IMG/VR virus record: IMGVR_UViG_3300003375_000001
Location: 96,001-160,000 of that record
Length of the DNA stretch: 64,000 nt
Reading direction: 5' to 3' (one strand)
From: a virus
Lineage: Duplodnaviria; Caudoviricetes
Shown here: positions 10,005-41,935 of the stretch, piece by piece
Position numbering within the stretch: position 1 is the stretch's first letter
How the letters are laid out: each line of letters opens with the position of its first letter
Program-made: the position numbers and the translations under genes
The notes under the pieces: model-generated
Seen by the model: the letters and a program-made list of their open reading frames with translations, nothing else
Database searches by the model: none
Told to the model about the DNA's origin: nothing

Positions 10005-10899
10005 GAACACCTTGATAGTAGTTGACGGCAACTGGCTTATAAACAGAGCACATTCCGTTTACGCTACTCACCGTAACCCCGCGGAGTCCACGGCCAAGCA
10101 GGTCATAGCCTGGATGTTTGAGTACGCGCTGGTACATCAAGCCTCTCACATGCTTCTTGCTATAGACGGAGACAACGTTTTTCGCAAAATCATATTTCCA
10201 GGGTACAAGTTATCGCGTCAAAAGAAGCGAGAGGCCGAGGCCAGAGACAGCGGTAACTTCGTTGAAGGCGTATCAAATAGCAACCCCGTTTATGAATGCC
10301 TGTCCTCGCTTTTCGAAAGAGCTGACAAATTGAAGGTACCTTATATTCAAGAGGATGCCTTTGAAGCTGACGACATTCTAGTAGGCTGTGCCAATAAGTT
10401 CTCTGGCCCTGACTGTAAGGTCGTCCTCATATGCAATGATAAGGACGACATCCAAGGGCTAATAAACGAGCACGTGGTCTTATGGACGCCGGCCATGATG
10501 AAGAAAGAACCTGTGTACGTTACCTGTTCCAGCATAGAGGCCCTAGGACATAAGTTCAAAGACTCCCAGCAGTTCCTTCACTATCAGATTCTGATAGGTG
10601 ACCCGATGGACGATGTACCTCAGCTAATGACTCCGGCCAAAGCCTACAAGGTTGTGTCCACTTACGGCAGCTTAGGGGGATGGTTCAAAACGCCAGAAGG
10701 AAGAGAATGGTTTATGAAACACTCAGGTCCTGTTAAGCTTAACCGCGAGTTGATAACAATGGTTAATCAGTCTGTGGACAAACTAACCTTGTCTAAGCTA
10801 AAGCCTGAACAGGTAGCGGGTTATGAGGACATCAAGCCAAAGAACTACTACAACTACTTTGGCCTAGCCAAAACAGCACGTAGGTCTTTGTTCGGATAG
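9988..10899 (+). CDS. 5'-3' exonuclease / flap endonuclease (T4 RNase H-like)
   Basis: VVDGNW, EADDI, DKDD.Q, GDPMDDVP motifs. Confidence 0.85.
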   Translation: MAKKYKNTLIVVDGNWLINRAHSVYATHRNPAESTAKQVIAWMFEYALVHQASHMLLAIDGDNVFRKIIFPGYKLSRQKKREAEARDSGNFVEGVSNSNPVYECLSSLFERADKLKVPYIQEDAFEADDILVGCANKFSGPDCKVVLICNDKDDIQGLINEHVVLWTPAMMKKEPVYVTCSSIEALGHKFKDSQQFLHYQILIGDPMDDVPQLMTPAKAYKVVSTYGSLGGWFKTPEGREWFMKHSGPVKLNRELITMVNQSVDKLTLSKLKPEQVAGYEDIKPKNYYNYFGLAKTARRSLFG

Positions 10900-11503: not shown

Positions 11504-11686
11504 ATGAGCCAGCTCTATCACATCTTCGCCGAGAATGTGATCACGAAAGAGCGTGTTCAGTTGACAACGCATGCTATGTCCAAGGCGCAGTCGGACTACA
11601 TGGCAGGCTTGTTCTCAACTCACTCGGCGCGCATTATTCGTGTTCTTCCTCTTCCAACTGTTATCCACTTCGAGGAATCCAAATGA
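11504..11686 (+). CDS. hypothetical protein
   Basis: Abutting ORF after GAAGG. Confidence 0.6.
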   Translation: MSQLYHIFAENVITKERVQLTTHAMSKAQSDYMAGLFSTHSARIIRVLPLPTVIHFEESK

Positions 11687-12063
11687 GCTTCGCCATGACT
11701 CGCATCCCTGTGTACCGTCGTCGGCCTGACGCCCGCGGGCGCTACCTTCCAAAGGAGCCTTACTTTTACGGAGGCCACAATCAAAGAACAGCGCGACAGG
11801 CTGCTGGCTCTTTCATGAAAGAGCATAAGTTGGAAGTTAAAGCCATGAAGGCTGATCCACGTGCGCGTAAGCATGACTGGTACAGCCTTCTCGACAAACT
11901 CAGGATGGATCGTAATATCTCCGAGCGTCGTTTGAAGAAAGCGTGGAAGCGTTTCGAGGCAAAGCAGGAACCGCGTGGCCGTGTTGAAAGGGCTTACGAA
12001 AGCGCCATATGTTATGAACTGTTTTGCAAAGCGGACGACCGACTGTATCGCAGTATGCTGTGA
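11683..12063 (+). CDS. hypothetical basic protein
   Basis: ATGA overlap, GAGGA RBS. Confidence 0.65.
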   Translation: MSFAMTRIPVYRRRPDARGRYLPKEPYFYGGHNQRTARQAAGSFMKEHKLEVKAMKADPRARKHDWYSLLDKLRMDRNISERRLKKAWKRFEAKQEPRGRVERAYESAICYELFCKADDRLYRSML

Positions 12064-26009: not shown

Positions 26010-26969
26010 ATGAACCAATACGAAACTTACCTACGCCACGTTTTGACAAAGGGTCGCTACAAGACAGATAGAACAGGCACAGGCACCTTGTCGACCTTTG
26101 GGTATCAAATTAGGTTTGACCTCGCTGAAGGTTTCCCTTTGGTCACCACTAAGAAGGTGCACTTCAAGTCTATCGTCACTGAACTGCTGTGGTTCTTGCG
26201 TGGTGACACAAACGTCAAATGGCTGCAGGAACATGGCTGCACAATCTGGGATGAGTGGGCTCGGGCTGACGGGTCACTAGGTCCCGTGTACGGTAAGCAA
26301 TGGCGCGACTGGTCAGGAAAAGTAAGTTTACACCGTAGTGACGTGATTCACCCTTTGTATGCTAACGCGTATCTTGTCGATGAGGATAACAAAGGTGTAG
26401 TTGCTTTTCAGGAACGCATTGATCAATTACAAGACGCCATTACCAAGCTTCGCACTAACCCCGATGACCGTCGTATCATCGTTAGCGCGTGGAACGTTGC
26501 TGATATCCCTGACATGGCTTTACCACCTTGCCATGCATTTTTTCAGTTCTACACTGAGGAACTTACCTTGACGGAACGCGAAGACCTTGCCGCTGCCGAC
26601 GAGATTCCTAAATACTACATGGACGAAAATCATGTACCAACTCGTAGGTTGTCTTGCCAGCTGTATCAGCGGTCCTGCGATTCTTTCCTGGGCGTCCCTT
26701 TCAATATCGCAAGCTATGCATTGCTGACGCATATCATTGCAGCAGAAGTGAACATGGTCGCGGGGGACTTCGTTTGGACAGGGGGTGACTGCCATATCTA
26801 CAACAATCACATGGAACAGGTTCACCAACAGTTGCAACGTGACCCCTACCCCTACCCCACCCTCCTCTTTGTCAACGGCGTCAAGAAATTTGACGAATAC
26901 CTGCCTGGAGATTTTGACGTAGACAAATACGTTCATCACCCCGCCATCAAAGCACCTGTTGCGGTATGA
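26010..26969 (+). CDS. thyA: thymidylate synthase
   Basis: [54 protein letters not shown]. Confidence 0.97.
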
Positions 26970-29181: not shown

Positions 29182-29841
29182 ATGAAACATCGATTAAACC
29201 TACCAGGATTCGATTCCGACGTATGCTGGACAATAGACAAGACCCTAGAACTCTGCTATGGCCATAGGGTGTGGACGCAAGTTCTTGACGATAGATTTTC
29301 TAATGACCTAAAGTGTGCCTGCCGTCATCTACATGGACACGAAGCAAAGATTCAGGTTTACTTATCTGGATCAGAGCTGAATCCTCAAGGCATGCTGACG
29401 GACTTCCGTCATTTGGAATGGGCCAAGAAGTTGTTCAATAGCCTGATCGATCATCAATTTATTATGCACAAGGAAGACCCCTTGTTGCCTATCATTCTAG
29501 ACACCACTAAACCCGGAAGCTATAAGCCTGAGCCTCAGTTTTTAGATCAAGTGCCTCTAGGTAGCTGGACTACAGCCAGCAAGATGTTCCTAGGTACTAG
29601 AGTACTGTATAACGGAACTAACAACGCGGTAAACGAACTGTTTGACGGACTGTTAGTTGTAGACTTTGTTCCTACATCAGAAAACCTAGCCAAATGGGTT
29701 CACTCTATTGTCAACTTCCGTATGTATTCCTTGCAGGTCGCGTGCACCCGCGTGGACTGGTGGGAGACCCCAAAGAGTAGAAGCTCTCATGTTAATACAG
29801 AGTCAATCGCCTGGAATTCAGAGCCAACCTTTACCCTTTAG
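29182..29841 (+). CDS. queD: 6-carboxy-5,6,7,8-tetrahydropterin synthase
   Basis: K..E.CYGHR, CRHLHGH, DH, PTSENLA, WETP motifs. Confidence 0.9.
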   Translation: MKHRLNLPGFDSDVCWTIDKTLELCYGHRVWTQVLDDRFSNDLKCACRHLHGHEAKIQVYLSGSELNPQGMLTDFRHLEWAKKLFNSLIDHQFIMHKEDPLLPIILDTTKPGSYKPEPQFLDQVPLGSWTTASKMFLGTRVLYNGTNNAVNELFDGLLVVDFVPTSENLAKWVHSIVNFRMYSLQVACTRVDWWETPKSRSSHVNTESIAWNSEPTFTL

Positions 29842-29847
29842 TAGATT

Positions 29848-30399
29848 ATGGAAAACCACACTTTAACCAATGTCGAAAACGTATCTGCACGTATGTCTGA
29901 TACGATTTTTTCTGTCAAAGCCATAGTGCTGAGAGGTCTTCCAGGGTCTGGTAAGTCTACGTTGTCTAACTGGATAGTAGACACGTTGGCCTTGAAGGGG
30001 TTTACTCCGTTTCAGATTAACGCTGACTTTATTAGGTCAGGCCTTAATGCGCATCTGGGTTTTAGCCATGAGGATCGTATTCGTCAAGCAGAGTCTTTAG
30101 GTCATATAGCGAGGCTAGCCTTGTGCAACAAGTGTCTGCCCGTTGTTGACTTTGTTATGCCTACTGAGGAAACATTACACGCATTTACTAAAGGCTTCGG
30201 TACTGACAACTTCATGGTAGTGTCCATGCGCCCTTACCACGCCACAGACAAAGACAGATATGGGGATACGTCCGCTATATTCGAGGACGACGTTTCTAGC
30301 AGTTGGTACATATCTGACGACAACTGCCTTGAGCTATTCAAGTACAACTTCCAGCGTTACCCTGCCGACTTCTTTGTTCAACACCAATCACAAAATTAA
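29848..30399 (+). CDS. adenylylsulfate (APS) kinase-like P-loop kinase
   Basis: GLPGSGKSTL, NADFIRSGLN..LGFSHEDRIRQAE.LG matches the CysC pattern. Confidence 0.75.
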   Translation: MENHTLTNVENVSARMSDTIFSVKAIVLRGLPGSGKSTLSNWIVDTLALKGFTPFQINADFIRSGLNAHLGFSHEDRIRQAESLGHIARLALCNKCLPVVDFVMPTEETLHAFTKGFGTDNFMVVSMRPYHATDKDRYGDTSAIFEDDVSSSWYISDDNCLELFKYNFQRYPADFFVQHQSQN

Positions 30400-30400
30400 C

Positions 30401-30835
30401 ATGACAAACTTAACTCGCAATAATCCTCGCATTTGGGTGACCTTTCAGCTTGAAGGCTTCCACAGGTACCCTGACGCACCGGACCAAGTAGCCTACTTGC
30501 GAAATGAACATCGACACATGTTCAACTTCAAGGTGACGTTGGAAGTCACACATGACAACCGTGAAGTTGAATTCCACATGTTTAGGTCAGAACTGATTAG
30601 TCTGTTTGGTAAGAACACCTTACAGATAGATCACAAGTCTTGCGAAATGCTAGCCGCCGACGTAATGAACTACCTGGATATGGCGTATTCAGGGCGCTTT
30701 GCTGAGGTAGAGGTATCAGAAGACGGAGAATGTGGTGCTGTGTTAACACGCCCTAACGTAGAAGACGTGCGTGACGTGGTGAACGACATGCTGGCAGAAC
30801 ACCGTAGGAACTCTCATGATTCATTCGGAGCGTGA
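30401..30835 (+). CDS. second QueD-like T-fold protein (candidate DpdL-type enzyme)
   Basis: EGFHRYP, HRHMFNFKV, REVEFH, SCEMLA, EVSEDGECG; His-rich T-fold pattern distinct from the canonical QueD. Confidence 0.6.
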   Translation: MTNLTRNNPRIWVTFQLEGFHRYPDAPDQVAYLRNEHRHMFNFKVTLEVTHDNREVEFHMFRSELISLFGKNTLQIDHKSCEMLAADVMNYLDMAYSGRFAEVEVSEDGECGAVLTRPNVEDVRDVVNDMLAEHRRNSHDSFGA

Positions 30836-32216
30836 ATACCATCAAGGCAAATCGCGCTTGGTATTTGCCGGACAAGAGTCACTTAACGGCTATTATCAAA
30901 TAGCCGTTAAGTTTGAAAAGAACAAAAACACGCAGACACTAGTTAGCCGAAACCCCAAGGTGCTAGAGATAAGGCTGCCTGATAGGACTGTGTACGTGTC
31001 GGGCAAGTCATCAAAAAGGTCTACAGTCCTTGATAGAGACGTTGATCTTATAGTGTCTACTAAACGGGACTTGAACCAGCATAAGGAAATGGGGACTGAC
31101 ATGCTTCTGTTCAATCCCATCCATGCGCCTCTTGCTATGGACACCCGTTCATACTTGCGTGAAGGCATAGACGTACTGGTCGACTCTGGAGGGTTTCAGC
31201 TAGCGCAAGGTACGTCAGACTTTGTGTCCCCATTGGAGACCGCTCAGTTCTACACTAAACATGCGTCAATAGGCATGGGGCTAGACTTCCCCTCTCCAGG
31301 TTTTATAGACAAGGCTCTATACGTGGAGAACTGTAGACTACAGGCCCTTAACAACGATTACATCCGTAGAAACATTCCTGACACCGTTAGTATGGCCCCC
31401 GTTGTTCACGGGGTTTCGCCTTTTACGCGCAAGCATTGCCTAGACACAGTTTTTAAGAAAGGCCGTGACAAGGCAATGGCACTCGCGGGCCTTATATCAA
31501 AAAGAACAGACTCGCCAGAGGCATTCAAACAGAGATTCGCGTGCATGGCTATGGTTCTAAATGAAACACGTCAGGACGTCATCTACTATCACGCTCTGGG
31601 AGCAACATCCCCTTGGATGCTGGCGTTGTACGCGCTGCTAACGAAGTCTAACTACGTGGTATCAATTGGTGGAGACTCCGTTAGTCACAGGCAGAATGCT
31701 ATCGGTGGGTCTTACAAGATACTACCGTACTTCAACGGTCCTGTCACCTTAACTCAACCGGTTACAACCAATACGCCTGCCCGACTCCCTTGTAGCTGCC
31801 CCGCGTGTGTAGCCGTAGGGGACGCTCGCATCTTGAGAGACTTTCGCATATCAGAGCTTCATCACTTGTATATGGCTAGTCATCAGAAGGTGTCCATAGA
31901 CAATTGCATTGACGCTTATATAAAGGGTCGGGTGTCGCGTGGGGAGATGTGGAAGTTTGTTATGGGCGATTCCAACCAAGGTTTCCGTACATTACCAAAC
32001 ATGGTATTCGACTACTTTGAGGCTGTGTTATCAAAGGGGTATGACAACGTGCCTAAGCTAGCGCCCTTTAAGGGGTACAGTGCGCGAGGCTCTTTATTTG
32101 GCTCGGCGGCTAGTACCAGTAAGCAAAAAAGCATCTTTGACAGATATCATGCCATTCACGCAGTTTACGAAAAGTTTCATGGCGTGTCCTTAAAGACTGG
32201 AAAGAAACTTGCATGA
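30816..32216 (+). CDS. dpdA: DpdA-like DNA guanine transglycosylase (TGT fold)
   Basis: VDSGGFQ, GLDFP, PVVHG, YHALG, DSVSH, CSCPAC..H zinc site; clustered with queD/queE/folE. Confidence 0.8.
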   Translation: MIHSEREYHQGKSRLVFAGQESLNGYYQIAVKFEKNKNTQTLVSRNPKVLEIRLPDRTVYVSGKSSKRSTVLDRDVDLIVSTKRDLNQHKEMGTDMLLFNPIHAPLAMDTRSYLREGIDVLVDSGGFQLAQGTSDFVSPLETAQFYTKHASIGMGLDFPSPGFIDKALYVENCRLQALNNDYIRRNIPDTVSMAPVVHGVSPFTRKHCLDTVFKKGRDKAMALAGLISKRTDSPEAFKQRFACMAMVLNETRQDVIYYHALGATSPWMLALYALLTKSNYVVSIGGDSVSHRQNAIGGSYKILPYFNGPVTLTQPVTTNTPARLPCSCPACVAVGDARILRDFRISELHHLYMASHQKVSIDNCIDAYIKGRVSRGEMWKFVMGDSNQGFRTLPNMVFDYFEAVLSKGYDNVPKLAPFKGYSARGSLFGSAASTSKQKSIFDRYHAIHAVYEKFHGVSLKTGKKLA

Positions 32217-32659
32217 CCACTGACATAAGAATAAGGGGTAAGGCATACAAAGACGTAGGCGGTCTTGTATTCTTTCCTGACAAGCATAACAGGCAACTAT
32301 GGGAAAGCGCCGGCTACTCAGTTTACCCCAGAATAGAATCTTGGATAACTGCTGGTTGCCCCGACAAGTCTGTTGTACATGACTACGCTGGGGTATTGGT
32401 TGATACAAGCATACCCATTGTAGACTCTGTGTATAGACACGGTATATACCACAAGGTTCAGAACTTCGTCTACAAAGGGTTACCTGCAACAGTCTACTCC
32501 ATTCGACCACTTGCTAAAGAGGCAAAGATGTACTCTAAGTTTGAAATGGAAATTCTTGACAATCACGGCGTCACCATGGTTGACGCAGAAGTATCCAAGG
32601 CGTCTTCCGGTCATGGTAAGATGACACGGGGCGGTTCACACAGAAAGGCCAAGAAATGA
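32213..32659 (+). CDS. hypothetical protein in the modification cluster
   Basis: ATGA-coupled to dpdA. Confidence 0.7.
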   Translation: MTTDIRIRGKAYKDVGGLVFFPDKHNRQLWESAGYSVYPRIESWITAGCPDKSVVHDYAGVLVDTSIPIVDSVYRHGIYHKVQNFVYKGLPATVYSIRPLAKEAKMYSKFEMEILDNHGVTMVDAEVSKASSGHGKMTRGGSHRKAKK

Positions 32660-33441
32660 AAGTTTGCTTTGTCTTAAGAAATGCTCCCGATTGGCATGGC
32701 CTGTCAAAATTATATGACAAGAACGGATACGTAGACCCTTCTTTATATCTTCCCCGTGACAAAGTCCCTTGTTTTCCTAAAAATGTTCCTCATTTTATAG
32801 ACGTTTGGAACGACACCCTTCCTGTAAGTTACTTTAAGTTCAGGTCCGTCCTGTCCGACGTGTCTAGGGCCTATGTTAAGGCTACAGGCTGTCCTTCCTT
32901 CTCTATAAGTTGCATACCCAACGACACAAATACGCTGGTTTACTTTCATGATGACGATGATCTTTTTTCATCAGAAATAACAGGCCTCACTCTACCTGAC
33001 GGTTATGACGTAACAGTAACGCCTCTCCTTCGTATAGACCCCAACAACTACTTCTTATTTTCGGCTGTACCTGTTACTTGTGGCATAGAGGTAAAGGCGA
33101 ATACCTATAGGTATAACACCAATAACTACGGAATACGGGCGTCCGTAATAGCGGATGCGCCAGGTCCTCGGGCCTACGAGGACCATATTAGAGCCTCTAC
33201 CTATGCTAAGACGGCTCTGTTAAAAGACAGTTGGTGTAACACAGTAGTTAGCGCAACCATCAAAACTCCAGCCAGCGCGTCTATCCTACCAAGAAGCTGT
33301 AAGTCACCAGAATCTCTTATAAAACAACTGTCTAAGTTTGACGTACTCTTAGGAAGTCTTTTGACTGAGCCTTTACATTCTAGCCTAGTCAAAAGTCTAA
33401 CCGAACTCCGAGTATTAACTTCGGATGCTCTTTCCAAGTAG
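32656..33441 (+). CDS. putative GT-A-like glycosyltransferase
   Basis: YFHDDDDLF (DxD-type) motif after a beta strand; family assignment tentative. Confidence 0.45.
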   Translation: MKVCFVLRNAPDWHGLSKLYDKNGYVDPSLYLPRDKVPCFPKNVPHFIDVWNDTLPVSYFKFRSVLSDVSRAYVKATGCPSFSISCIPNDTNTLVYFHDDDDLFSSEITGLTLPDGYDVTVTPLLRIDPNNYFLFSAVPVTCGIEVKANTYRYNTNNYGIRASVIADAPGPRAYEDHIRASTYAKTALLKDSWCNTVVSATIKTPASASILPRSCKSPESLIKQLSKFDVLLGSLLTEPLHSSLVKSLTELRVLTSDALSK

Positions 33442-33447
33442 GTAACC

Positions 33448-34128
33448 ATGAAAAACATACTCATCCTGTCTATGCCTCGTACCCGTAGTACCTTGCTGTA
33501 TAAGGCTATATGTCAGAAAAATCCCGAGTACTACCGTTTCTACGAGCCAGGACTCGGGTATAACTGGGGTAAGTTACAGCCTAGAGAGGCTGCGGCTTTG
33601 AACGAAGCAGAAATGACGAACGTGGATAAGGCCCTAGCTTCGGGTAAGGGGACAATCGTTAAGCTCCTGCCCGCAGGTCCTTACTACCAGATATCACCAG
33701 GCCGTCTCCTAGAATGGAGTCAAGCATTCGACACCGTGTACGTCCTCAATCGGGACTTCAAGGACATTGCTAAGTCTTTTATCATAGCTAGCTCTACCAA
33801 TGTCTTTGTTGCCGATGAGGACAATCGAATAGCCCCTCGCACCACAGTGGCCTACAACCCCTTTGTTCATGAAAAGATTATATGGGAGCTGGCCTATGGC
33901 CGACAGAACCTCGACTACTGGGGAACAATTCTGACTGATAAACCACGCAACGGTAAGACCAAGTATGTAACGGAGATTGAGTATGACCATGTGTTACGCT
34001 ACATGGAGAGTCATGGTCTGAATACACAGGCTACCGAGGCTCAGACTGAGGTAAACTTTATAGACAGCGACGAGTTTACCTCACACGTTGCTTACGCCTC
34101 TAGGCTATACAACGAAAGCTTAGTATGA
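33448..34128 (+). CDS. sulfotransferase-like protein
   Basis: N-terminal ILILSMPRTRSTLL (PAPS-binding loop like PRTGST) followed by FYEP. Confidence 0.65.
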   Translation: MKNILILSMPRTRSTLLYKAICQKNPEYYRFYEPGLGYNWGKLQPREAAALNEAEMTNVDKALASGKGTIVKLLPAGPYYQISPGRLLEWSQAFDTVYVLNRDFKDIAKSFIIASSTNVFVADEDNRIAPRTTVAYNPFVHEKIIWELAYGRQNLDYWGTILTDKPRNGKTKYVTEIEYDHVLRYMESHGLNTQATEAQTEVNFIDSDEFTSHVAYASRLYNESLV

Positions 34129-35219
34129 AACGAGTTCTATTCATAACGGCTACACCATTTACTCCGGCCAACCAAGGCAATTCTCAAAGAGCCTTGCAAA
34201 TGCTTGAGATATATAAGCAACTCGGTTACTCTGTTACCGTTCTATATCACGAAGCGGAAAGGCCCTTCGACTTTAACGATAGGGACGACACTAAGGACAC
34301 GGTAGACATTCTTAGAGTGGTTACTACAAATACAGACAAGTCCTCATTCCTTGATCCTATAACGCACCAGGCCAATCCGGATGACTGGTTTGACGGGTAT
34401 TTATTACTGAAGTCGGAAATCGAACTTCAAAGAAGCCTTTACCATTTTGACGTGGTGCACGTAAACTACGTTTGGTATTCTAAGGCGTTTGAATACTTTC
34501 CAAACTCCTTAAAGGTGATTGACACCCACGACGTGTTCTCCAATAGAGACAAGGTATTTACTAAAGCTGGACTGAAACCAGAATGGTTCTCTACTTCTAT
34601 AGACGCAGAGCGTGAGGCTCTTCTTAGAGCTGATATGGTGCTGGCTATATCTACGGAAGACGCACGCGAGTTTTTGTGTCTAGGTGTAGTACCTACCTAC
34701 CTGCCATACTACAGAGAGCCTTGCAGGAGAAAGCCAGAGGTAGGTTACATAGCAGCGGACAATGACTTTAATAGGCTCGCAGTTAGACACCTGTTGCTCT
34801 CTTTCTCGCAACTCACACACCGCAACTTTATTTTGAACATCGCAGGCTCTATCTGCAAGTATGCAGAGAGCCTACGGGTACTGGGTCTGGCTGACAATGA
34901 GGTTGTTTACTCCGGCTATGTGAAACACCTTGACGAGTTCTACTCTAGTATTGACCTTGCTGTTAATCCAGCTAAAGCAGGCACCGGTTTAAAGATAAAG
35001 ACCATAGAGGCTATGATGTATGGCGTGCCGGTTGTAACTACTAGCGCAGGTAGTACTTCAGCCTTAGATAATTGTCATTCCAGATCCGTTACTGTAGTTA
35101 AGGACACTGACGAACTAGTGAGAGCCTGCCAAAGCCGTTTCGAAATAGAGGGGATACGACCGTATGTGAACGACTACCTCAAGTCCCTTAGCTTTTTTCA
35201 AGCCCAACTAAAATCATGA
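34125..35219 (+). CDS. GT4 (GT-B) glycosyltransferase
   Basis: IDTHDV, AIS.ED, GYV..LDEFY, GTGLKIKTIEAMMYGVPVVTT. Confidence 0.85.
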   Translation: MKRVLFITATPFTPANQGNSQRALQMLEIYKQLGYSVTVLYHEAERPFDFNDRDDTKDTVDILRVVTTNTDKSSFLDPITHQANPDDWFDGYLLLKSEIELQRSLYHFDVVHVNYVWYSKAFEYFPNSLKVIDTHDVFSNRDKVFTKAGLKPEWFSTSIDAEREALLRADMVLAISTEDAREFLCLGVVPTYLPYYREPCRRKPEVGYIAADNDFNRLAVRHLLLSFSQLTHRNFILNIAGSICKYAESLRVLGLADNEVVYSGYVKHLDEFYSSIDLAVNPAKAGTGLKIKTIEAMMYGVPVVTTSAGSTSALDNCHSRSVTVVKDTDELVRACQSRFEIEGIRPYVNDYLKSLSFFQAQLKS

Positions 35220-35920
35220 CCAAGACTATCAAAATCTACCAGATGGAGTCCACAAGTAAGTGCTCCGCTACGTGCTCCTTTTGTCCTCATCCTACTATGG
35301 AGAGAACGAAAGAGCATATGGACTTACACTTGTTCAAACGAGCTATCGATGTGATGGAGAACGACTATCTCGCTCTACATCACTTTGGTGAGCCTCTTCT
35401 GCACCCTAACCTACCAGACATGATATGGTATGCCAAAGAGAAAGGTAAACGTGTTGAATTCAGCACGAACGGGAAAGGTTTGAATAATCAGAAAGACGGC
35501 GACGACTACCTCCGTCGCGTTCTGGCTGCCGAACCTCATCGTATGCGTATTGCTTATGACTTCTTTCAACCGGATGAGTTTGTCAAAAAAGCTCTAACGC
35601 TTAACGTGTCAACCATTATTACTATGCACGCGGTAACGAAAGGCATACTCCTAGACTACAAGCCTCTCAACAACTGGGCTAATCAAATGCCTGAGCTTGG
35701 AGAGTCAGAGATAAAAGGTGAATGCTACTTCTTGAAGTACAACTACTACGCTGTAATGGCTAGTGGAAATGTAGTCCCCTGCTGCCAGGACTACGAAGGC
35801 AAACATGTGATTGGTCACATCGACGACTTGGATAACCTCAAGCCCCAAAAATCTTACACCCTGTGCAAAGGTTGCTCGGGCATGCAGTTTGCCAAGGACG
35901 GAGGCTGGGTTGCAGAATGA
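35216..35920 (+). CDS. radical SAM protein with SPASM/twitch-like C-terminus
   Basis: CSATCSFC, HHFGEPLLHP, STNG, PCCQD...CKGC. Confidence 0.88.
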   Translation: MTKTIKIYQMESTSKCSATCSFCPHPTMERTKEHMDLHLFKRAIDVMENDYLALHHFGEPLLHPNLPDMIWYAKEKGKRVEFSTNGKGLNNQKDGDDYLRRVLAAEPHRMRIAYDFFQPDEFVKKALTLNVSTIITMHAVTKGILLDYKPLNNWANQMPELGESEIKGECYFLKYNYYAVMASGNVVPCCQDYEGKHVIGHIDDLDNLKPQKSYTLCKGCSGMQFAKDGGWVAE

Positions 35921-36636
35921 CTACAAAAACCTTTACCATAGTAGCACCTCACGTCGATGACGAGGTAATAGGATGCTATAGCCTTCTTGACGCTGGTCTA
36001 GTGTCTGAAGTAATATACCTGTATGAAGTAGACGAGGTGCGAAAGTCTGAGGCTCTTGCTTGCGCTAAGAGGTTCGGGTTTAAAGCTACCATAGCTGGCG
36101 TTGACTACCCCGAGTCGGAGTTACAGGCCTACTTAAGAAAAGACGTAGCGCGTAGTATAGTTTTGCCTTCAGCTTATGACAGCCATCCTGACCATAAGAA
36201 GGCGAATGCAAAGTTTAGGCCTATTGACGACTTTTCCTATACGTCTTACTACGGGGTGGACATGAGCACTCCTAATACTACGGTACTATCGGTTGAGACT
36301 CGTGACAAAAAGAGACATGACCTTTACACCCTCTTCCCCTCACAGGCCTCGTTGTTTAATAGCAGTGATAAGTATCATCTGTTCGAAGACATGAGGAACC
36401 ACGACTGCACTTTCTATAGAAATTATGGGTGGACTAATAGAAATAACACTAAGATCGTCCTGAGTAGCTTTGGTGAAAGGGGCTTCCCTCCTAGTCTCGA
36501 ATGGTGCTTCCATGCTATTGATAACGTTGGTGCTCACAACATAGAGCTAATAGCTGATCGTATCCGCTCCCTGTACCCTAAGCTAGGGGTTAAGGTGACT
36601 GTTAACGAGTCTCACTCTGTTAGTATACCTATCTAG
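35917..36636 (+). CDS. PIG-L/LmbE family de-N-acetylase
   Basis: VAPHVDDEVIG and HPDH motifs; ATG 35917 overlaps the upstream stop. Confidence 0.8.
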   Translation: MTTKTFTIVAPHVDDEVIGCYSLLDAGLVSEVIYLYEVDEVRKSEALACAKRFGFKATIAGVDYPESELQAYLRKDVARSIVLPSAYDSHPDHKKANAKFRPIDDFSYTSYYGVDMSTPNTTVLSVETRDKKRHDLYTLFPSQASLFNSSDKYHLFEDMRNHDCTFYRNYGWTNRNNTKIVLSSFGERGFPPSLEWCFHAIDNVGAHNIELIADRIRSLYPKLGVKVTVNESHSVSIPI

Positions 36637-36644
36637 GACACGTA

Positions 36645-36842
36645 ATGACTTTGAGCCAACAGCCCTCTGCGGAAGAATTACTGTCAATACTCTACCACTC
36701 GCTGCCAGACATTCTCCCTGCCGTTGTAGTAGACAGATTCAATAGAACAGGTGTCTGGGCTGAAGGCAGCCATTACGCTAAAAGAGGTTTTACCTCAAAG
36801 GTAGTATACCGACTTGACGATGATATTCACATAGTCCTGTAA
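36645..36842 (+). CDS. hypothetical protein
   Basis: AGGA RBS. Confidence 0.5.
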   Translation: MTLSQQPSAEELLSILYHSLPDILPAVVVDRFNRTGVWAEGSHYAKRGFTSKVVYRLDDDIHIVL

Positions 36843-36897
36843 GTCATGGATAGCGCAAACAAACTCTTCACACAGGCTAAGCCTAAGGAAACTCACC

Positions 36898-36975
36898 ATG
36901 AACCTAGTTAAACAGCCACTCCCCTTGTACCTTGTACCCTTGGAGCCTATAGCGTCTAAAATCTTGTACCGTTAG
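36898..36975 (+). pseudogene. stranded 5' end of the glycosyltransferase gene (MNLVKQPLPLYLVPLEPIAS-KILYR*)
   Basis: Strong RBS AAGGAAACTCACC-ATG; LYLVPLEPIAS matches LFLVTLEPIAS at the start of 37987-39147. Confidence 0.75.
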
Positions 36976-38040
36976 AACCTCTCATTTTTATTCAGGATAA
37001 ACTACACCTGACGAAAATGCCTAAAATCATATGGACTGACGAAAAGATTAAAACTGAATTTTACAGTGCTTGGAAAAATGCGTGTGTAATACTAAATAAG
37101 GGCACTAAGGGCAAGGCTTCCCGCTTAAAAATTAAGTGTACGCATCATGGTATATTTGAAAGCACTGTAACCAACGCTATTCGTAAAGGCTGCCCTCACT
37201 GCGCGGGCCTTACCAACTATTTATGGTCTGATGAAAGAAAACAAAAGGCCAGCCATAGACAAAAAGGTGAGCCTAAGCGTAAGGGGAGAAATAACCCCTT
37301 AACTCTTACTTTAGAAGAAGTTAAAAACAAGATAGTTAGTCTGCATGGTAATAGATACGACTTGTCTTTCATAAAAGACCCTTTCCCGCCTAATAACAAA
37401 TTTACCTTAGTATGTTCTACTCACGGTAAATTTGTCAAACATCGCACAGACATCCTGTATAACGCTAAAACAGGCTGTCCAAAATGTAAAGGTGGGAAGC
37501 TGTTAACGTCTATAGAGGTTAAGAAAAGGTTGAAGGCTACGCAGCCTAAATGGATAAGTTATTCAAAGCTAGAGTACAGTAGAGAAGGCTTTACCATAAC
37601 ATGCAAGCTCCACGGCGATAGCATAGTAAAGCCAAGTAGAATCTATTCTAAAGGCTACGTTTGCAAGCAGTGTAACGTTAAGAGAGTTAGAGACTTAAAG
37701 GTTGCAAGTGGTTTATACCTTGACCCGAAACTAAAATCAGCCTTTGCCGTATACAGGCAAGAAGTTAGAAGACTTTCCGATAAAACGTTTAAACTTCACT
37801 TCGATAAGGACACCCGGACTAAAGACGTTCACTTAGACCACGTATATTCTATAAGATCGGGATTTGACAATGAAGTCCCACCTGAGGTTATAGCTAGTTT
37901 ACCTAACCTTAGACTTCTGTCCAGAACAGATAACCAGAGTAAACGAGATAAGTGTGACATTTCACTAAAAACCTTGTATAAGTTATATGCAAAGACCAAA
38001 AACTAAACTTTTTCTAGTTACTCTTGAACCTATAGCGTCT
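36958..38040 (+). mobile_element. free-standing HNH homing endonuclease insertion carrying a replacement 5' end for its target gene
   Basis: Bounded by a 12-nt direct repeat CCTATAGCGTCT (36946-36957 and 38029-38040); visibly more A-rich than its flanks. Confidence 0.7.
37017..38006 (+). CDS. HNH homing endonuclease with three Zn-finger repeats
   Basis: C..HG.F...GCP.C-type repeats x3; HLDHVYS...NLRLLSRTDNQSK HNH core. Confidence 0.85.
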   Translation: MPKIIWTDEKIKTEFYSAWKNACVILNKGTKGKASRLKIKCTHHGIFESTVTNAIRKGCPHCAGLTNYLWSDERKQKASHRQKGEPKRKGRNNPLTLTLEEVKNKIVSLHGNRYDLSFIKDPFPPNNKFTLVCSTHGKFVKHRTDILYNAKTGCPKCKGGKLLTSIEVKKRLKATQPKWISYSKLEYSREGFTITCKLHGDSIVKPSRIYSKGYVCKQCNVKRVRDLKVASGLYLDPKLKSAFAVYRQEVRRLSDKTFKLHFDKDTRTKDVHLDHVYSIRSGFDNEVPPEVIASLPNLRLLSRTDNQSKRDKCDISLKTLYKLYAKTKN

Positions 38041-39147
38041 CGGTATACAGGTTCTTGGTACAAAAACTTTCCCCCAGCCTTTGAAGAGCTGGGGTTTGCC
38101 GTTACTGTGCTTGACGGTACGCCACTCACAGATACCATAAAAGTTGGTAGCTTTCTTGATATCAATTCCACGATAGCTTATAAGAACTCCCAAATGGGGA
38201 AGATAGCTGGCATGTTTCATAGAAAGGAAGTGCCTCAAGGCGCTCACTTCTATTTCATGGACATAGAATTCTGGGGAATTGAGTCGTTGCGCTTGATGGC
38301 TGACATGAACAACGTCAAGATTCATATATCCGGGTTCCTGCATGCGGCTTCTTACACAGTAGACGATGCGTTTTCTATTGCAGCTCCTTACCAGAGGTAT
38401 ACAGAGGTTGGCTGGATAGCGGCATTGGACTTGGTATTCGTTGGCTCGGAGTACCACAAGAGAGCACTAATAGACCGGCGTCTTACTCTACCAGGTCTAA
38501 GCGACTTGTCCAAGAAGGTAATCGTAACCGGCAACCCCTTGTTTCAATCTGATTATCCTGTTTATGGCTTGCCAAAGAAGAACCAGATAATACTGCCTAA
38601 TCGTATTGACTGGGGTAAGAGGCCTGACCTTAGTTTTGCTGTGGCTGCGTTGTTCAAGGCACAGAGACCTGATTGGAATGTAGTAGTAACAACAGGTAAA
38701 GAAACGTTGTCCAGTGATAAGCAATGGCTTAGTGACTATGCCTACTGGATGCAGAAGCTAGGAGTTCTTGAGATAAAAACCAACTGTACTAAGGAAGACT
38801 ACCATAAGACCTTAGCCGAAAGCAAGCTTATGATGTCATTCTCTATAGAGGAAAACTTCGGGTACTGTATAGCAGAAGCCATTATCTATAACGTACTGCC
38901 AATCCTTAGGTCAGGCTTGTCCCATGACGAATTTAGCCTTCCAGATGCCTGCTATTTTGATGACGAAGACGGAGCGTTAAAAACATTGTTGGCCCTTACG
39001 GATCTTAATAACTATAAGTATAAGCATAGAGTGACCATAGAGGATACCGTTAATACACTAAAGCACGGTAGCTGTAAGTATTTAGGCTACCCCGGTAACA
39101 ATACGTCTATACGGGAAATGGCTATTGAAATGAAGGCTCTGATATGA
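37987..39147 (+). CDS. GT-B fold glycosyltransferase-like protein
   Basis: LEPIASRYT..W, FLHAASY, NRIDWGKRP, EENFGYCIAEA (ExFG..E nucleotide-sugar motif). Confidence 0.75.
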   Translation: MQRPKTKLFLVTLEPIASRYTGSWYKNFPPAFEELGFAVTVLDGTPLTDTIKVGSFLDINSTIAYKNSQMGKIAGMFHRKEVPQGAHFYFMDIEFWGIESLRLMADMNNVKIHISGFLHAASYTVDDAFSIAAPYQRYTEVGWIAALDLVFVGSEYHKRALIDRRLTLPGLSDLSKKVIVTGNPLFQSDYPVYGLPKKNQIILPNRIDWGKRPDLSFAVAALFKAQRPDWNVVVTTGKETLSSDKQWLSDYAYWMQKLGVLEIKTNCTKEDYHKTLAESKLMMSFSIEENFGYCIAEAIIYNVLPILRSGLSHDEFSLPDACYFDDEDGALKTLLALTDLNNYKYKHRVTIEDTVNTLKHGSCKYLGYPGNNTSIREMAIEMKALI

Positions 39148-39602
39148 GACAAGACCTTGTTGTGTTTGACATTGACGGCTGCGTTATTGACTCTGAACAT
39201 CGAGTTGATCTAATGCATCAAGGCAAGATAGATCAGTACCATGCAAAGTGGGTAGACGACAAACCTATTAAACAAGGTTTGGTTATTTACGATCTGATCA
39301 TGAAGACCAGTGACCTTAAGTGGGTGTTCGTAACCGGTCGCTTCGAATCGTGTAGAGAGTACACCCAAGCTCAACTGGAAGGTATGTTTGGTGAAGTTGT
39401 CAACTCGAAGAACCTTTTGATGCGGCCTGACGGAATGACCTCAAAGGTTAAAGAAGACGCGGAGCTGAAGCCATGGCTGCTTGAACGCGCCGGCTACTCG
39501 CTGGATAGAGTTTTTCTTGTGTTCGAAGACCGTAACAGCATGGTTAAGGCCTGGCGCAAACTAGGCAAAGTGGTCTATCAAACCGCAGAAGGGGATTTTT
39601 GA
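39144..39602 (+). CDS. HAD phosphatase (PNKP-like)
   Basis: VFDIDG, VTGR, LLMRP, FEDR. Confidence 0.88.
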   Translation: MRQDLVVFDIDGCVIDSEHRVDLMHQGKIDQYHAKWVDDKPIKQGLVIYDLIMKTSDLKWVFVTGRFESCREYTQAQLEGMFGEVVNSKNLLMRPDGMTSKVKEDAELKPWLLERAGYSLDRVFLVFEDRNSMVKAWRKLGKVVYQTAEGDF

Positions 39603-40414
39603 TGACTATACCTATCGTCGTGCAGAATGCCGACATCAATTTGACCAAGAACTTCTTTAAGAACTTCAAAGAAGATGAGCTAGCTGTTCACGGTACATTT
39701 TACACAGTACAAGGTGAGGGGCCCTTAGCAGGTATTCCTGCCTGGTTCATTAGGCTGGCCGGTTGCAACTTCGGTGCCAAGGACATAGCTTGCAGTTTTT
39801 GCGATACGGCTTTTAGTGTTATGAAGTCTAAGGTAAGGACCATTCACGATCTGTGCAATGAGTTTTATTCCCTTTGCTACGGCTTAGGCTTTGTCCCAGT
39901 AGTGGTTATAACTGGAGGTGAACCCCTGCTCCAAGATAACGTAGAAGGGCTGGTTAGCGCCTTGCTGACTAAGACCAGTCTTTACTATGTGCCTAATACC
40001 AAGGTTCAGATAGAGACAAATGGTACACAGATACCCGTTGTTAAAAGGCTACTAAGAGACTGGGAAGACGAAGAAAATTTCGCTTTGGTAATAAGTCCAA
40101 AGACTGTTAAAGGTAGCTATGGGTTAGAAAAAGACTACGGGTATAAGACTGGATACTACTATAAGTTTGTAGTGTCCGCTGACCCTAACAACCCACATCA
40201 TGAGGTACCCAAATGGGCAGACAACATTATCACGTACGTTTCTCCTATGACAGTGTATAAAAAAGCGTACGAAGGTGAAGTGTCGAGCGTTTGGGACGGT
40301 GACCTCATAGACAGAGAAGCCACTAAAGCCAACTATGAATACGCGGCTAAGCTGGCTATGAAATACGGCTATAGGGTGTCTGTTCAAATGCACACCTTTC
40401 TTAATATCGCATAG
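39599..40414 (+). CDS. queE: 7-carboxy-7-deazaguanine synthase (radical SAM)
   Basis: FYTVQGEG..G.PAWFIRLAGCN......CSFCDT, TGGEPLLQ, IETNG, SPK, SVQMH. Confidence 0.92.
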   Translation: MMTIPIVVQNADINLTKNFFKNFKEDELAVHGTFYTVQGEGPLAGIPAWFIRLAGCNFGAKDIACSFCDTAFSVMKSKVRTIHDLCNEFYSLCYGLGFVPVVVITGGEPLLQDNVEGLVSALLTKTSLYYVPNTKVQIETNGTQIPVVKRLLRDWEDEENFALVISPKTVKGSYGLEKDYGYKTGYYYKFVVSADPNNPHHEVPKWADNIITYVSPMTVYKKAYEGEVSSVWDGDLIDREATKANYEYAAKLAMKYGYRVSVQMHTFLNIA

Positions 40415-40417
40415 ATC

Positions 40418-41269
40418 ATGAACCACATACACGAAAAGCATAGTCTTGAGTCCTCGATAAGAGGTATGTATCCTCAGGACGCAGAAACCCTTGTCGATCA
40501 CGCTGCTGACATTAAAACGGCTATAGCAAAGTATTGTAGTGACGAGGAGTCATTGTCCATGCTTGACGGTCAAGCGTCTGAGTCGGAGCTTGCAAACTTT
40601 GCAGACACACCTATTCGTGCGGCTAAGGCTTTGCAGGGAGTGCTTAAAGAAGTAGCACGCTTGGAAGAGGACACTTGTCAGCCTCTTTACCTTCATCGCG
40701 TGCTTAACGACAGAAAGACTCTTATAGACAGCCTAATGGCTAAGCCTAGATACTTCGCGGAAGTAAAGGAAATCATCGCTACAGGTTTTCCTACAGAGGA
40801 TGAGGACTGTGGCATTGTCACTCAAGGGCCCATTCATGCAAAAGGTCTATGCCCCCATCACTTCCTTCCGGTTTACTACACGGCCTTTATTGCTTACAAA
40901 CCCACAAAGGGTGGGTATGTACTTGGTCTAAGCAAACTGGCGCGCATTGTGATCGCCTTAGCCGCTCGCCCCGTTTTGCAAGAACAACTTACTGCCGATA
41001 TTGCCGACGTTCTATATAGGCACAAACAATCCAGTGTGCCTAGCGCGCAGGCTATTACAGTGAAGCCTACTGAGTCAAGACCTTGTATAGACAGCGATGG
41101 TTCAGCTCTACAGCTAATTGGTGAGCACACCTGCATGTCGTGCCGTGGCGTACGGTCTAACGCACGTACACTAACCACTGTTCTAAGAGGTGCATTCTCA
41201 AAAGACTTACACCTCAAAAGCGAGTTCTATTCCGCTATAGAAGCCATTAGACAGACGCGAAATGGCTAA
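40418..41269 (+). CDS. folE: GTP cyclohydrolase I
   Basis: DTP.RAAK, LCPHHFLP, LGLSKLARIV, LQEQLT, HTCMSCRGV. Confidence 0.93.
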   Translation: MNHIHEKHSLESSIRGMYPQDAETLVDHAADIKTAIAKYCSDEESLSMLDGQASESELANFADTPIRAAKALQGVLKEVARLEEDTCQPLYLHRVLNDRKTLIDSLMAKPRYFAEVKEIIATGFPTEDEDCGIVTQGPIHAKGLCPHHFLPVYYTAFIAYKPTKGGYVLGLSKLARIVIALAARPVLQEQLTADIADVLYRHKQSSVPSAQAITVKPTESRPCIDSDGSALQLIGEHTCMSCRGVRSNARTLTTVLRGAFSKDLHLKSEFYSAIEAIRQTRNG

Positions 41270-41902: not shown

Positions 41903-41935
41903 GAAAAGGGCCACTAGGCCCTTTTCCTATTTCTG
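41903..41935 (+). terminator. intrinsic terminator
   Basis: GAAAAGGGCC-ACTA-GGCCCTTTTC followed by T-rich sequence. Confidence 0.85.

Follow-up and report, generated by a model that had tools for sequence, protein, structure and literature searches.

Gene content of the cluster

We analysed a window of 64,000 nucleotides (nt), which corresponds to positions 96001-160000 of the 238,517-bp phage genome IMGVR_UViG_3300003375_000001, and concentrated on the stretch at 29182-41269 (window coordinates are used throughout), in which genes for 7-deazaguanine DNA modification stand together with genes resembling glycosyltransferases, a deacetylase, a radical SAM dehydrogenase and a sulfotransferase. 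According to its IMG/VR record, the source genome belongs to an uncultured phage, is rated 100% complete and carries direct terminal repeats. The stretch contains 15 open reading frames (ORFs), all on the plus strand, and was read as one operon. Nearly all of these ORFs overlap by 4 nt or stand 3-6 nt apart, the sole break being a 380-nt non-coding gap (starting at ~36637) 5′ of a gene for an HNH/DUF723 endonuclease, and the 15 genes are translationally coupled. Coordinates and strands confirmed what an earlier note on this DNA had described as a co-oriented 12-kb run of mostly overlapping or abutting genes, with queD first and queE-folE last. The GC content of the window is even (0.45-0.49) save for a dip to 0.42 at 36-38 kb, no tRNAs were found in the window, and a megablast comparison of the 12-kb region with cultured phages gave no match. 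The genes of the deazaguanine core, together with the glycosyltransferase and the deacetylase that accompany it, are the following:

29182-29841, plus strand: QueD (6-carboxytetrahydropterin synthase), 219 amino acids (aa); Pfam PTPS 2e-22, phrog_2389 9e-30, CxxxHGH present
30398-30835, plus strand: DpdL homologue (T-fold, proposed 7-carboxy-7-deazaguanine decarboxylase), ~145 aa; phrog_17812 3e-27, motif LRNEHRHMF
30816-32216, plus strand: DpdA-like DNA guanine transglycosylase (TGT fold), 466 aa; profile against PDB, DSGGFQ and CSCPAC
35917-36636, plus strand: PIG-L/LmbE-like metal-dependent de-N-acetylase, ~239 aa; AHxDD and DxHxxH conserved, Pfam PIG-L 3e-5
37987-39147, plus strand: GT4 retaining-type glycosyltransferase (GT-B fold), 386 aa; AlphaFold model, Foldseek, family Glycos_transf_1
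39599-40414, plus strand: QueE (7-carboxy-7-deazaguanine synthase), TTG start; phrog_2076 1.5e-36, Pfam Radical_SAM 6e-10
40418-41269, plus strand: FolE (GTP cyclohydrolase I), N-terminal extension; Pfam GTP_cyclohydroI 7.5e-30, phrog_2197 1.6e-30

The core genes point to a DpdL-type pathway

The set for the synthesis of 7-carboxy-7-deazaguanine (CDG), that is, FolE, QueD and QueE, is complete within the cluster (Pfam and PHROG matches between 2e-22 and 1.5e-36). The LRNEHRHMF sequence of the ORF at 30398-30835 corresponds to the signature LxxxHRHxF, in place of the CxxxHGH of QueD. This signature defines DpdL, which is proposed to decarboxylate CDG in the phiST system that yields 2′-deoxy-7-deazaguanosine (dDG) in DNA (Cui, Hutinet et al., NAR 2023, PMC10516641). 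Using tblastn, we found DpdL homologues in 29 cultured-phage records, phiST and ACP17 included, the window protein being 29% identical to the DpdL of phiST (4e-6) and 47% identical to that of ACP17 (1e-27). QueC (PF06508) gave no match in the complete 238.5-kb genome, in which controls were recovered 14 out of 14 times, and the complete genome encodes no PAPS-reductase-family protein either. The absence of QueC closes the preQ0 branch and, combined with the presence of the DpdL homologue, indicates a DpdL-type pathway rather than one simply ending at CDG. The earlier note, whose gene list had overlooked both the DpdL homologue and the HNH/DUF723 endonuclease at 37017-38006, had let the pathway end at CDG; for a FolE/QueD/QueE/DpdL/DpdA gene set without QueC, the published prediction is 7-deazaguanine (DG), present as dDG in DNA.

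Profile searches upheld the assignment of the 466-aa protein as a TGT-fold, DpdA-like enzyme. The Pfam TGT model gives no match to it, but a profile of 18 homologues matched archaeosine TGT (4.8e-10), QTRT1 (2e-8) and bacterial DpdA 7ui4 (0.007) in the PDB. DSGGFQ (D123-S-G-G-x-Q) is invariant across the 18 homologues, and the window protein also has CSCPAC. With 24-30% identity to the Motura ‘tRNA guanine transglycosylase’ and to a BCSR5 protein, it groups with the proteins of BCSR5, Motura, X1, ACP17 and PA5oct. An assignment to DpdA3, the phiST type, was ruled out: phiST DpdA3 has 259 aa, belongs to another subfamily and, as a query, found no relative among the fetched loci, a set from which the window ORF is excluded. 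Neither the DpdA-like protein nor the radical SAM protein, used as a single-protein query, found any related IMG/VR locus. An iterated hidden Markov model detected DpdA of the window subfamily in 22 of 47 loci, and two further genomes carry such a gene elsewhere. That a 7-deazaguanine DNA system is encoded here is very probable.

A GT4 glycosyltransferase and a PIG-L-like enzyme are near-obligate companions of DpdL

More than 300 relatives at ~50% identity, many of them on contigs of 200-295 kb, make the family of the GT4 protein at 37987-39147 a large one. The Glycos_transf_1 domain was recognised in 21 out of 21 family members (best 7e-15), the window protein itself scoring 24.6 bits against a cut-off of 26.4. 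Among the matches listed by Foldseek for its AlphaFold model (pLDDT 83.8), the best were BshA, MshA, PIG-A, glycogen synthase and the tetrahydrobiopterin glucosyltransferase (E ~1e-12). As for the PIG-L-like protein, a PDB search with the single sequence gave nothing meaningful, and a profile found only TT1542 and an LmbE-related protein, weakly (0.043 and 0.27) and aligned across the zinc motifs. In 15 homologues these motifs are well kept: A10, P11, H12, D14 and D15 are nearly invariant, and D88, H90 and H93 are invariant.

We counted the neighbours of the GT4 gene in 36 IMG/VR loci that were found with a GT4 alignment (30-56% identity), taking tblastn matches at E ≤ 1e-3 within 10 kb. PIG-L was present in 33 of the 36 loci and DpdL in 32, followed by FolE (25/36) and QueE (17/36). 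A single ORF of 246-303 aa encodes both a PIG-L-like domain (N-terminal) and a DpdL domain (C-terminal) in 20 loci (L009:8747-9586 and 19 others); without a common substrate molecule for the two domains, such a fusion would be difficult to account for. In cultured phages a GT4 homologue occurs in 17 records, every one of them among the 29 with DpdL, and GT4 and DpdL were neighbours in the five cultured loci fetched (X1, BCSR5, ACP17, PA5oct and Phosso). Of the cultured carriers, BCSR5, X1 and BUDD possess PIG-L together with GT4 and DpdL; PA5oct, ACP17 and Phosso possess GT4 and DpdL. The cluster of Burkholderia phage BCSR5 shares QueD, DpdL (51%), PIG-L (34%), GT4 (49%) and DpdA (30%) with the window, and local tblastn also located homologues of the 148-aa ORF, QueE, FolE and the HAD phosphatase in it. 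This linkage, the main comparative finding, assigns the GT4 protein and the PIG-L-like protein to the deazaguanine pathway, as its near-obligate companions.

Two observations on cultured members of this group bear on the product. PA5oct DNA contains an unidentified modified G and shows G-dependent resistance to several restriction enzymes (2025 preprint, PMC12191111), and dpdL plus dpdA of ACP17 alone gave no dDG in E. coli, for which the authors suggest that further enzymes may be needed (PMC10516641). The same 2023 paper on DpdL contains no mention of glycosylation.

The common GT4/PIG-L/DpdL module also includes, in 27 loci, a PP-loop ATPase with an SGGKDS motif that weakly matches PAPS_reduct and, in 23 loci, a conserved ~143-aa protein of no recognised family. 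Examples, ATPase first and 143-aa protein second, are:

L005:10350-10883 and 11531-11962
L003:8811-9635 and 10359-10826
L009:8176-8790 and 9556-10008

A lineage-specific cassette follows dpdA

The remaining ORFs of the operon, and the first terminator-like site past it, are:

29848-30399, plus strand: APS-kinase-like P-loop kinase, 183 aa; Pfam APS_kinase 1.5e-13
32213-32659, plus strand: 148-aa protein (o148) that follows dpdA in relatives; homologues 27-38% identical
32656-33441, plus strand: 261-aa protein (o261), weak GT-A (GT2-like) look-alike with a DDDD motif; TM ~0.5, low-confidence model
33448-34128, plus strand: sulfotransferase-like protein (o226), 226 aa; Atlas features and structure, PAPS-binding-like motifs
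34125-35219, plus strand: second GT-B (GT4-type) glycosyltransferase (GT1), 364 aa; Glyco_trans_1_4 3.4e-17, Glycos_transf_1 1.5e-7
35216-35920, plus strand: BtrN-like radical SAM dehydrogenase with SPASM/twitch-type C-terminus, 234 aa; Pfam Radical_SAM, SPASM 6e-4
37017-38006, plus strand: HNH/DUF723 homing endonuclease; Pfam DUF723 1.3e-7, phrog_681 and phrog_559 (endonuclease)
39144-39602, plus strand: stand-alone HAD phosphatase of T4 PNK phosphatase type, 152 aa, DIDG motif; HAD_PNKP 3e-14, phrog_415 8e-21
41903-41926, no strand: GC-rich bidirectional hairpin; 10-bp stem with 6 GC pairs

Two ENA contigs, L052 and L011, which have the same genes at their overlapping ends, stand for the closest relative, which is colinear with the window over 21.3-41.3 kb. 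It has dpdA (57% identity), o148, o226 (39%), an unknown 180-aa ORF, the radical SAM gene (86%), GT4 (59%), the HAD phosphatase, QueE and FolE. A third lineage, L057, contains dpdA (52%), o148, o226 (31%), GT1 (37%) and the radical SAM gene in the order of the window, and in a fourth, L059, o226 adjoins the radical SAM gene in a different context. The order dpdA-o148-o226-(GT1)-radical SAM is therefore kept in L011/L052 and in L057 at 31-57% identity, and the fact that o226, the radical SAM gene and GT1 stay just 3′ of dpdA despite such divergence argues for a shared function. In the 36 GT4 loci, on the other hand, the kinase, o261, o226, GT1 and the HNH gene were never found; the sulfotransferase-like gene, GT1 and the BtrN-like radical SAM gene are specific to this small lineage. 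Homologues of o148, which matched no family or fold, lie directly 3′ of dpdA in BCSR5, L011, L057 and several IMG/VR loci, and the HAD phosphatase has homologues in the equivalent clusters of L011, BCSR5 and L023.

The earlier note had proposed the co-occurrence of glycosyltransferase and sulfotransferase genes with dpdA in relatives as a test that could refute it. GT4 and PIG-L did co-occur, and so did o226, GT1 and the radical SAM gene in two further lineages; the link was looser for the APS-kinase-like gene, which lies beside thyA in the closest relative, and o261 had no homologue in any fetched locus. The radical SAM/SPASM, PIG-L-like and HAD phosphatase genes were present at the places given, whereas the count of three glycosyltransferase-like genes held only in part: those at 34125-35219 and 37987-39147 are solid, but that at 32656-33441 is a weak GT-A look-alike, whose Atlas structure, drawn from a low-confidence model, reached a TM of ~0.5 to GT2 clusters. 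For GT1 itself, neither a full-length relative among cultured phages nor a sequence match in the PDB was found.

The closest match of the radical SAM protein in a phmmer search of the PDB was BtrN (4m7s, 2.5e-9), aligned along its full length (residues 2-204), the next one reaching only 0.026. Its cluster motif CX3CX2C reads CSATCSFC, and its C-terminus has the Cys-rich domain expected for auxiliary clusters. The protein is 69-86% identical in L011/L052 and L059, where its neighbours reach just 30-57%, which denotes an unusually strong constraint. Relatives at 27% identity occur in phages of Firehammervirus, a phage group known for deazaguanine-modified DNA; in one of them, Campylobacter phage CPt10 (L051, record 73874-85560), the BtrN-like gene stands in a row of six radical SAM genes, together with an amidinotransferase-like gene.

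The HNH gene, found in none of the relatives compared, is a mobile insert between the PIG-L and GT4 genes and stands outside the pathway. Other insertions were seen in the closest relative, where thyA is split by a LAGLIDADG endonuclease gene (L052:10525-12467) and the 615-aa QueE contains a Hint (intein) domain (L011:5686-7533); both genes are uninterrupted in the window. A scan of the window for promoters and terminators gave no excess over shuffled sequences (24 vs 19.3; 15 vs 12.3), the hairpin at 41903-41926 alone being noteworthy.

Candidate genes for sulfation

The APS-kinase-like protein scored 51.5 bits with Pfam APS_kinase, over a cut-off of 21.1, and 21 out of 21 of its PDB matches were APS kinases (best 2.8e-10). 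The motifs GLPGSGKST and LGFSHEDR (LGFSxEDR) are present, and the alignment suggests a change of DGDN to NADF that retains the second Asp and the Arg. For o226, the Atlas gave features of 0.95-0.96 and a TM of 0.62-0.66 to Stf0/Sulfotransfer_3 clusters. The protein has a PRTRST sequence (residues 10-15) that is 5′-PSB-like and an R102-x7-S110 sequence that is 3′-PB-like, both of the kind that binds 3′-phosphoadenosine-5′-phosphosulfate (PAPS), and it lacks a Walker A GxxxxGK. R11 (in the PRxxST loop), R102 and S110 show no substitution in 8 homologues. Searches of cultured phages with o226 by tblastn gave no match and a word-based homologue search returned only the protein itself, while a full HMMER scan yielded 7 short relatives.

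Homologues of the kinase (40-48% identity) were found in three clusters, L054:3361-12110, L060:786-8017 and L061:3529-10134, which contain HMUDK, Sulfotransfer_2, glycosyltransferase/sugar-nucleotide genes, APS kinase, a ThyA-family gene and an HD hydrolase. In Ralstonia phage phiRSL1, ORF230-238 (L062) comprise an APS kinase (33%), three DNA-type glycosyltransferases and a sulfotransferase adjoining a ThyA-family gene; HMUDK is not annotated in this stretch. These four clusters, of which phiRSL1 is the cultured member, are candidates for a sulfated sugar modification of hydroxymethyl-uracil. They share with the window an APS-kinase-like gene (33-48% identical to that of the window), a sulfotransferase and glycosyltransferases within a base-modification cluster, but they follow a ThyA-family-based pyrimidine route, with HMUDK in L054, L060 and L061, and their sulfotransferases are of Sulfotransfer_2 or Gal-3-O type, unrelated to o226. 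Since an APS-kinase-like gene and a sulfotransferase recur in two chemically different kinds of DNA-base cluster, a genuine PAPS/sulfotransfer pair in the window becomes more likely.

A proposed pathway and its known counterparts

By homology, FolE, QueD and QueE would convert GTP into CDG, the DpdL homologue would lead to DG, and the TGT-fold DpdA would swap this base for G in DNA. The conserved linkage suggests that the GT4 enzyme (37987) would place an N-acetyl-hexosamine on the deazaguanine or a precursor, probably from UDP-N-acetylglucosamine, a donor named solely from the PIG-L partnership and the nearest structures, and that the PIG-L-like enzyme would then strip the acetyl group to leave a free amine. 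In this lineage only, the amino sugar may subsequently be oxidised by the BtrN-like radical SAM dehydrogenase, extended by GT1 and perhaps by the GT-A-like o261, and sulfated by o226, with PAPS topped up by the APS-kinase-like enzyme, while the HAD phosphatase would dephosphorylate some intermediate. The predicted product is a bulky, amino-sugar-bearing and possibly sulfated 7-deazaguanine that would block restriction. Candidate attachment atoms are N2 (as in huimycin), C7 after decarboxylation and the CDG carboxyl.

A glycosyltransferase followed by a deacetylase is the logic of several known pathways: BshA/BshB for bacillithiol, MshA/MshB for mycothiol, PIG-A/PIG-L for the glycosylphosphatidylinositol anchor and BtrM/BtrD for butirosin. 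BshA, MshA and PIG-A are GT4 enzymes that transfer N-acetylglucosamine (GlcNAc) and whose product passes to a de-N-acetylase of the PIG-L family. The dehydrogenase BtrN oxidises an amino-cyclitol in the butirosin pathway, which also uses the GT4 enzyme BtrM and the LmbE-type deacetylase BtrD. The window resembles these systems in pairing a GT4 enzyme similar to BshA, MshA and PIG-A with a PIG-L-like zinc enzyme and, as regards butirosin, in having a BtrN-like enzyme in the same operon. It differs from them in that sequence identity is just 12-16%, the phage pair lies among deazaguanine genes and is often fused to them, and the acceptor would not be malate, inositol phosphate, phosphatidylinositol or 2-deoxystreptamine.

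Sugars on a 7-deazaguanine are known from natural products. Huimycin and dapiramicin carry a sugar on the N2 amino group and, in huimycin, the GT4-type enzyme HuiG attaches GlcNAc to N2 of 7-deazaguanine using UDP-GlcNAc (PMC7439116). FolE, QueD and QueE homologues and a GT4-type glycosyltransferase, in huimycin one acting on a 7-deazaguanine base, are common to both systems, the likeness of HuiG to the phage GT4 being one of enzyme type. In contrast, huimycin is a soluble product of actinomycetes with an O-methylated preQ0 core; its synthesis requires QueC and involves no DpdA, DpdL, deacetylase or sulfation genes. A GT4 enzyme with a GT-B fold that acts on a 7-deazaguanine derivative within a nucleic acid also exists, the tRNA-queuosine mannosyltransferase QTMAN/GTDC1. 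Drosophila QTMAN ranked 13 among the listed Swiss-Prot matches of the GT4 model (E 4e-12, TM 0.56), tied with many generic GT4 enzymes, but the group it modifies is the cyclopentenediol of queuosine, and without QueC this phage is unable to produce queuosine. The identity of the GT4 protein as QTMAN was rejected, since the QTMAN_N domain was found in 0 of 21 family members at E ≤ 1.

The nearest DNA system is that of phiST (PMC10516641), which has in common with the window FolE, QueD, QueE, a DpdL with LxxxHRHxF, the lack of QueC and a transglycosylase of the TGT superfamily in the operon. Apart from its DpdA3, of 259 instead of 466 aa and of another subfamily, the phiST cluster differs in having no GT4 (no match at E ≤ 1e-5), PIG-L, radical SAM, sulfotransferase-like or kinase gene. 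These differences make plain dDG an unlikely product of the window.

Weighing the alternatives

We consider the evidence about evenly balanced as to whether the operon at 29182-41269 combines, as its gene content suggests, DpdL-type 7-deazaguanine modification of DNA with a built-in sugar-tailoring pathway, and we would give about half of our confidence to the predicted presence of an amino-sugar-decorated deazaguanine in DNA. That the DNA base bears sulfate as well as sugar is a doubtful proposition, and the complete product, a 7-deazaguanine replacing DNA guanine whose amino sugar is oxidised, extended and sulfated, must be called unlikely. The glycosylated, possibly sulfated base put forward in the earlier note has thus gained partial support from gene linkage, and we still infer it rather than observe it.

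A number of points weigh against the presence of such a base. The whole case consists of homology and gene linkage. DG has no hydroxyl or other obvious acceptor group, which leaves the acceptor atom unexplained and makes the chemistry harder. The nearest structural relatives of the GT4 protein use small molecules or lipids as acceptors, not nucleic acid, and the 50 PDB and 30 Swiss-Prot matches listed for its model include no T4-type DNA glucosyltransferase (BGT/AGT) or TAGT, DNA still being a possible substrate. The PIG-L-like protein, with 25.0 bits, falls under the Pfam cut-off of 28.2. About half of the GT4 loci have no DpdA of this subfamily within 10 kb, and two genomes, L034 and L036 (95 and 92 kb; 100% and 91% complete), carry GT4, the PIG-L-DpdL fusion, FolE and QueE with no match to the DpdA profile anywhere; they may use another transglycosylase family or none. 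The PP-loop ATPase and the 143-aa protein of the common module are absent from the genome studied here even at E ≤ 10, so that its chemistry may differ from that of the usual GT4 module. In the closest relative, PIG-L, o261 and GT1 are missing from the cluster, and the kinase (53%) lies 4 kb upstream, directly before thyA, and not in the operon.

The sulfation step has difficulties of its own. The earlier note had named an APS-kinase-like and a sulfotransferase-like gene; Pfam and PDB matches and PAPS-binding motifs speak for them, but the kinase aligns with APS kinases over its N-terminal half only (residues 24-109 in the PDB matches), and with NCBIfam apsK it reached 49.7 bits, below 138.7, with only residues 24-125 aligning. 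As for o226, it gave no Pfam match and reached no curated family cut-off, and its fold (model pLDDT 83.5) ties sulfotransferases with P-loop kinases in Foldseek and VIA-align, the latter giving Z 9.1-9.6 over 178-193 residues (full length) for sulfotransferases and Z up to 10.0 over ~150 residues for kinases.

The DNA might contain plain dDG, as in phiST, with the sugar, oxidation and sulfation genes decorating virion proteins, host envelope glycans or another macromolecule and sitting in the operon merely through shared expression timing. Indeed, phiST makes dDG from QueD, QueE, FolE, DpdL and DpdA with no glycosyltransferase at all, DG offers no obvious acceptor, GT4 enzymes, sulfotransferases and PIG-L enzymes usually act on glycans and small molecules, the kinase changes its position among relatives and o261 has no relatives. 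We regard this explanation as rather unlikely, however, because GT4 and PIG-L accompany DpdL in 32-33 of the 36 loci, which come from widely differing phages, all 17 cultured-phage GT4 records have DpdL, a lineage cassette lies between dpdA and GT4 in three lineages and timing alone offers no explanation for the 20 loci in which PIG-L is physically fused to DpdL. That same fusion fits two successive steps on a small molecule, and GT4 and PIG-L could act on a free deazapurine or pterin. The sugar would then either serve as a transient handle, lost by the time DpdA has inserted the base, or belong to a soluble product of the huimycin or pterin-glycoside kind, in both cases with a sugar-free DNA base. 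Huimycin itself exemplifies GT4-type GlcNAc transfer to the free 7-deazaguanine base, the tetrahydrobiopterin glucosyltransferase is among the structural matches of the GT4 model, the published model places DpdL on the free base (PMC10516641), and some complete genomes with the module have no DpdA of this subfamily. We find this quite improbable: the operon itself includes a dpdA gene, as do 22 of 47 loci, and a second glycosyltransferase, an oxidase and a sulfotransferase would be a heavy investment for a transient handle. The restriction resistance of PA5oct DNA, being G-dependent, also speaks against it, although it does not separate plain dDG from a larger base.

The acceptor could, finally, be a hydroxymethyl-pyrimidine in DNA, as it probably is for clusters of the phiRSL1 type, the glycosylation and sulfation genes being nested among deazaguanine genes by chance. 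Kinase homologues stand directly upstream of a ThyA-family gene in L052, L054, L060 and L061, which raises the possibility that the kinase is tied to thyA; in the last three they also share clusters with HMUDK and sulfotransferase genes, and phiRSL1 has a comparable cluster of APS kinase, glycosyltransferases, sulfotransferase and ThyA-family gene. The earlier note had dismissed a hydroxymethyl acceptor from the dUMP-type Asn of the window ThyA; this residue alone cannot exclude hydroxymethyl-dUMP, but other findings favour the same conclusion. The gene at 26013-26966 is the sole ThyA-family gene in the genome and has a canonical score (373 bits), and the genome encodes neither HMUDK nor TAGT, which together make a pyrimidine acceptor unlikely. 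Moreover, the window ThyA gave no tblastn match (E ≤ 1e-4) in L054, the one such cluster compared, and in relatives o226, GT1 and the radical SAM gene follow dpdA, not thyA. On balance, a pyrimidine target is very improbable indeed, and the amino-sugar-bearing deazaguanine stays our preferred, if conditional, interpretation.

Implications for phage DNA modification

All phage 7-deazaguanine DNA bases described to our knowledge carry small groups, and we know of no report of a sugar-bearing purine or of a sulfated base in DNA; likewise, we found no description in the literature of a glycosylated or sulfated deazaguanine in DNA. What is new from this window is the PIG-L-DpdL fusion and the layer of sulfation and BtrN-like genes. 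If the proposed pathway is true, its product would be without known precedent in any DNA, both as a glycosylated purine and as a sulfated base, and would come from a line of tailoring enzymes like that for aminoglycosides (GT4, LmbE-type deacetylase and BtrN-like dehydrogenase) with PAPS made by the phage. Taken with the pyrimidine clusters of the phiRSL1 type, it would mean that DNA-sugar sulfation arose at least two times in phages, and the sulfation layer would constitute a new chemical class and provide new enzymes for DNA labelling.

The tie between GT4 and PIG-L-DpdL implies that a class of jumbo and T4-like phages, with PA5oct, BCSR5, X1, ACP17 and Phosso as its cultured members, may carry a far bulkier purine than previously considered for them. 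A sugar-bearing base would explain both the modified G of PA5oct and the failure of ACP17 dpdL plus dpdA to give dDG. A purine of this kind would have consequences for restriction, for CRISPR and for the recently discovered nucleases that sense modifications, and also for the sequencing and cloning of the phages that carry it, some of which are candidates for phage therapy.

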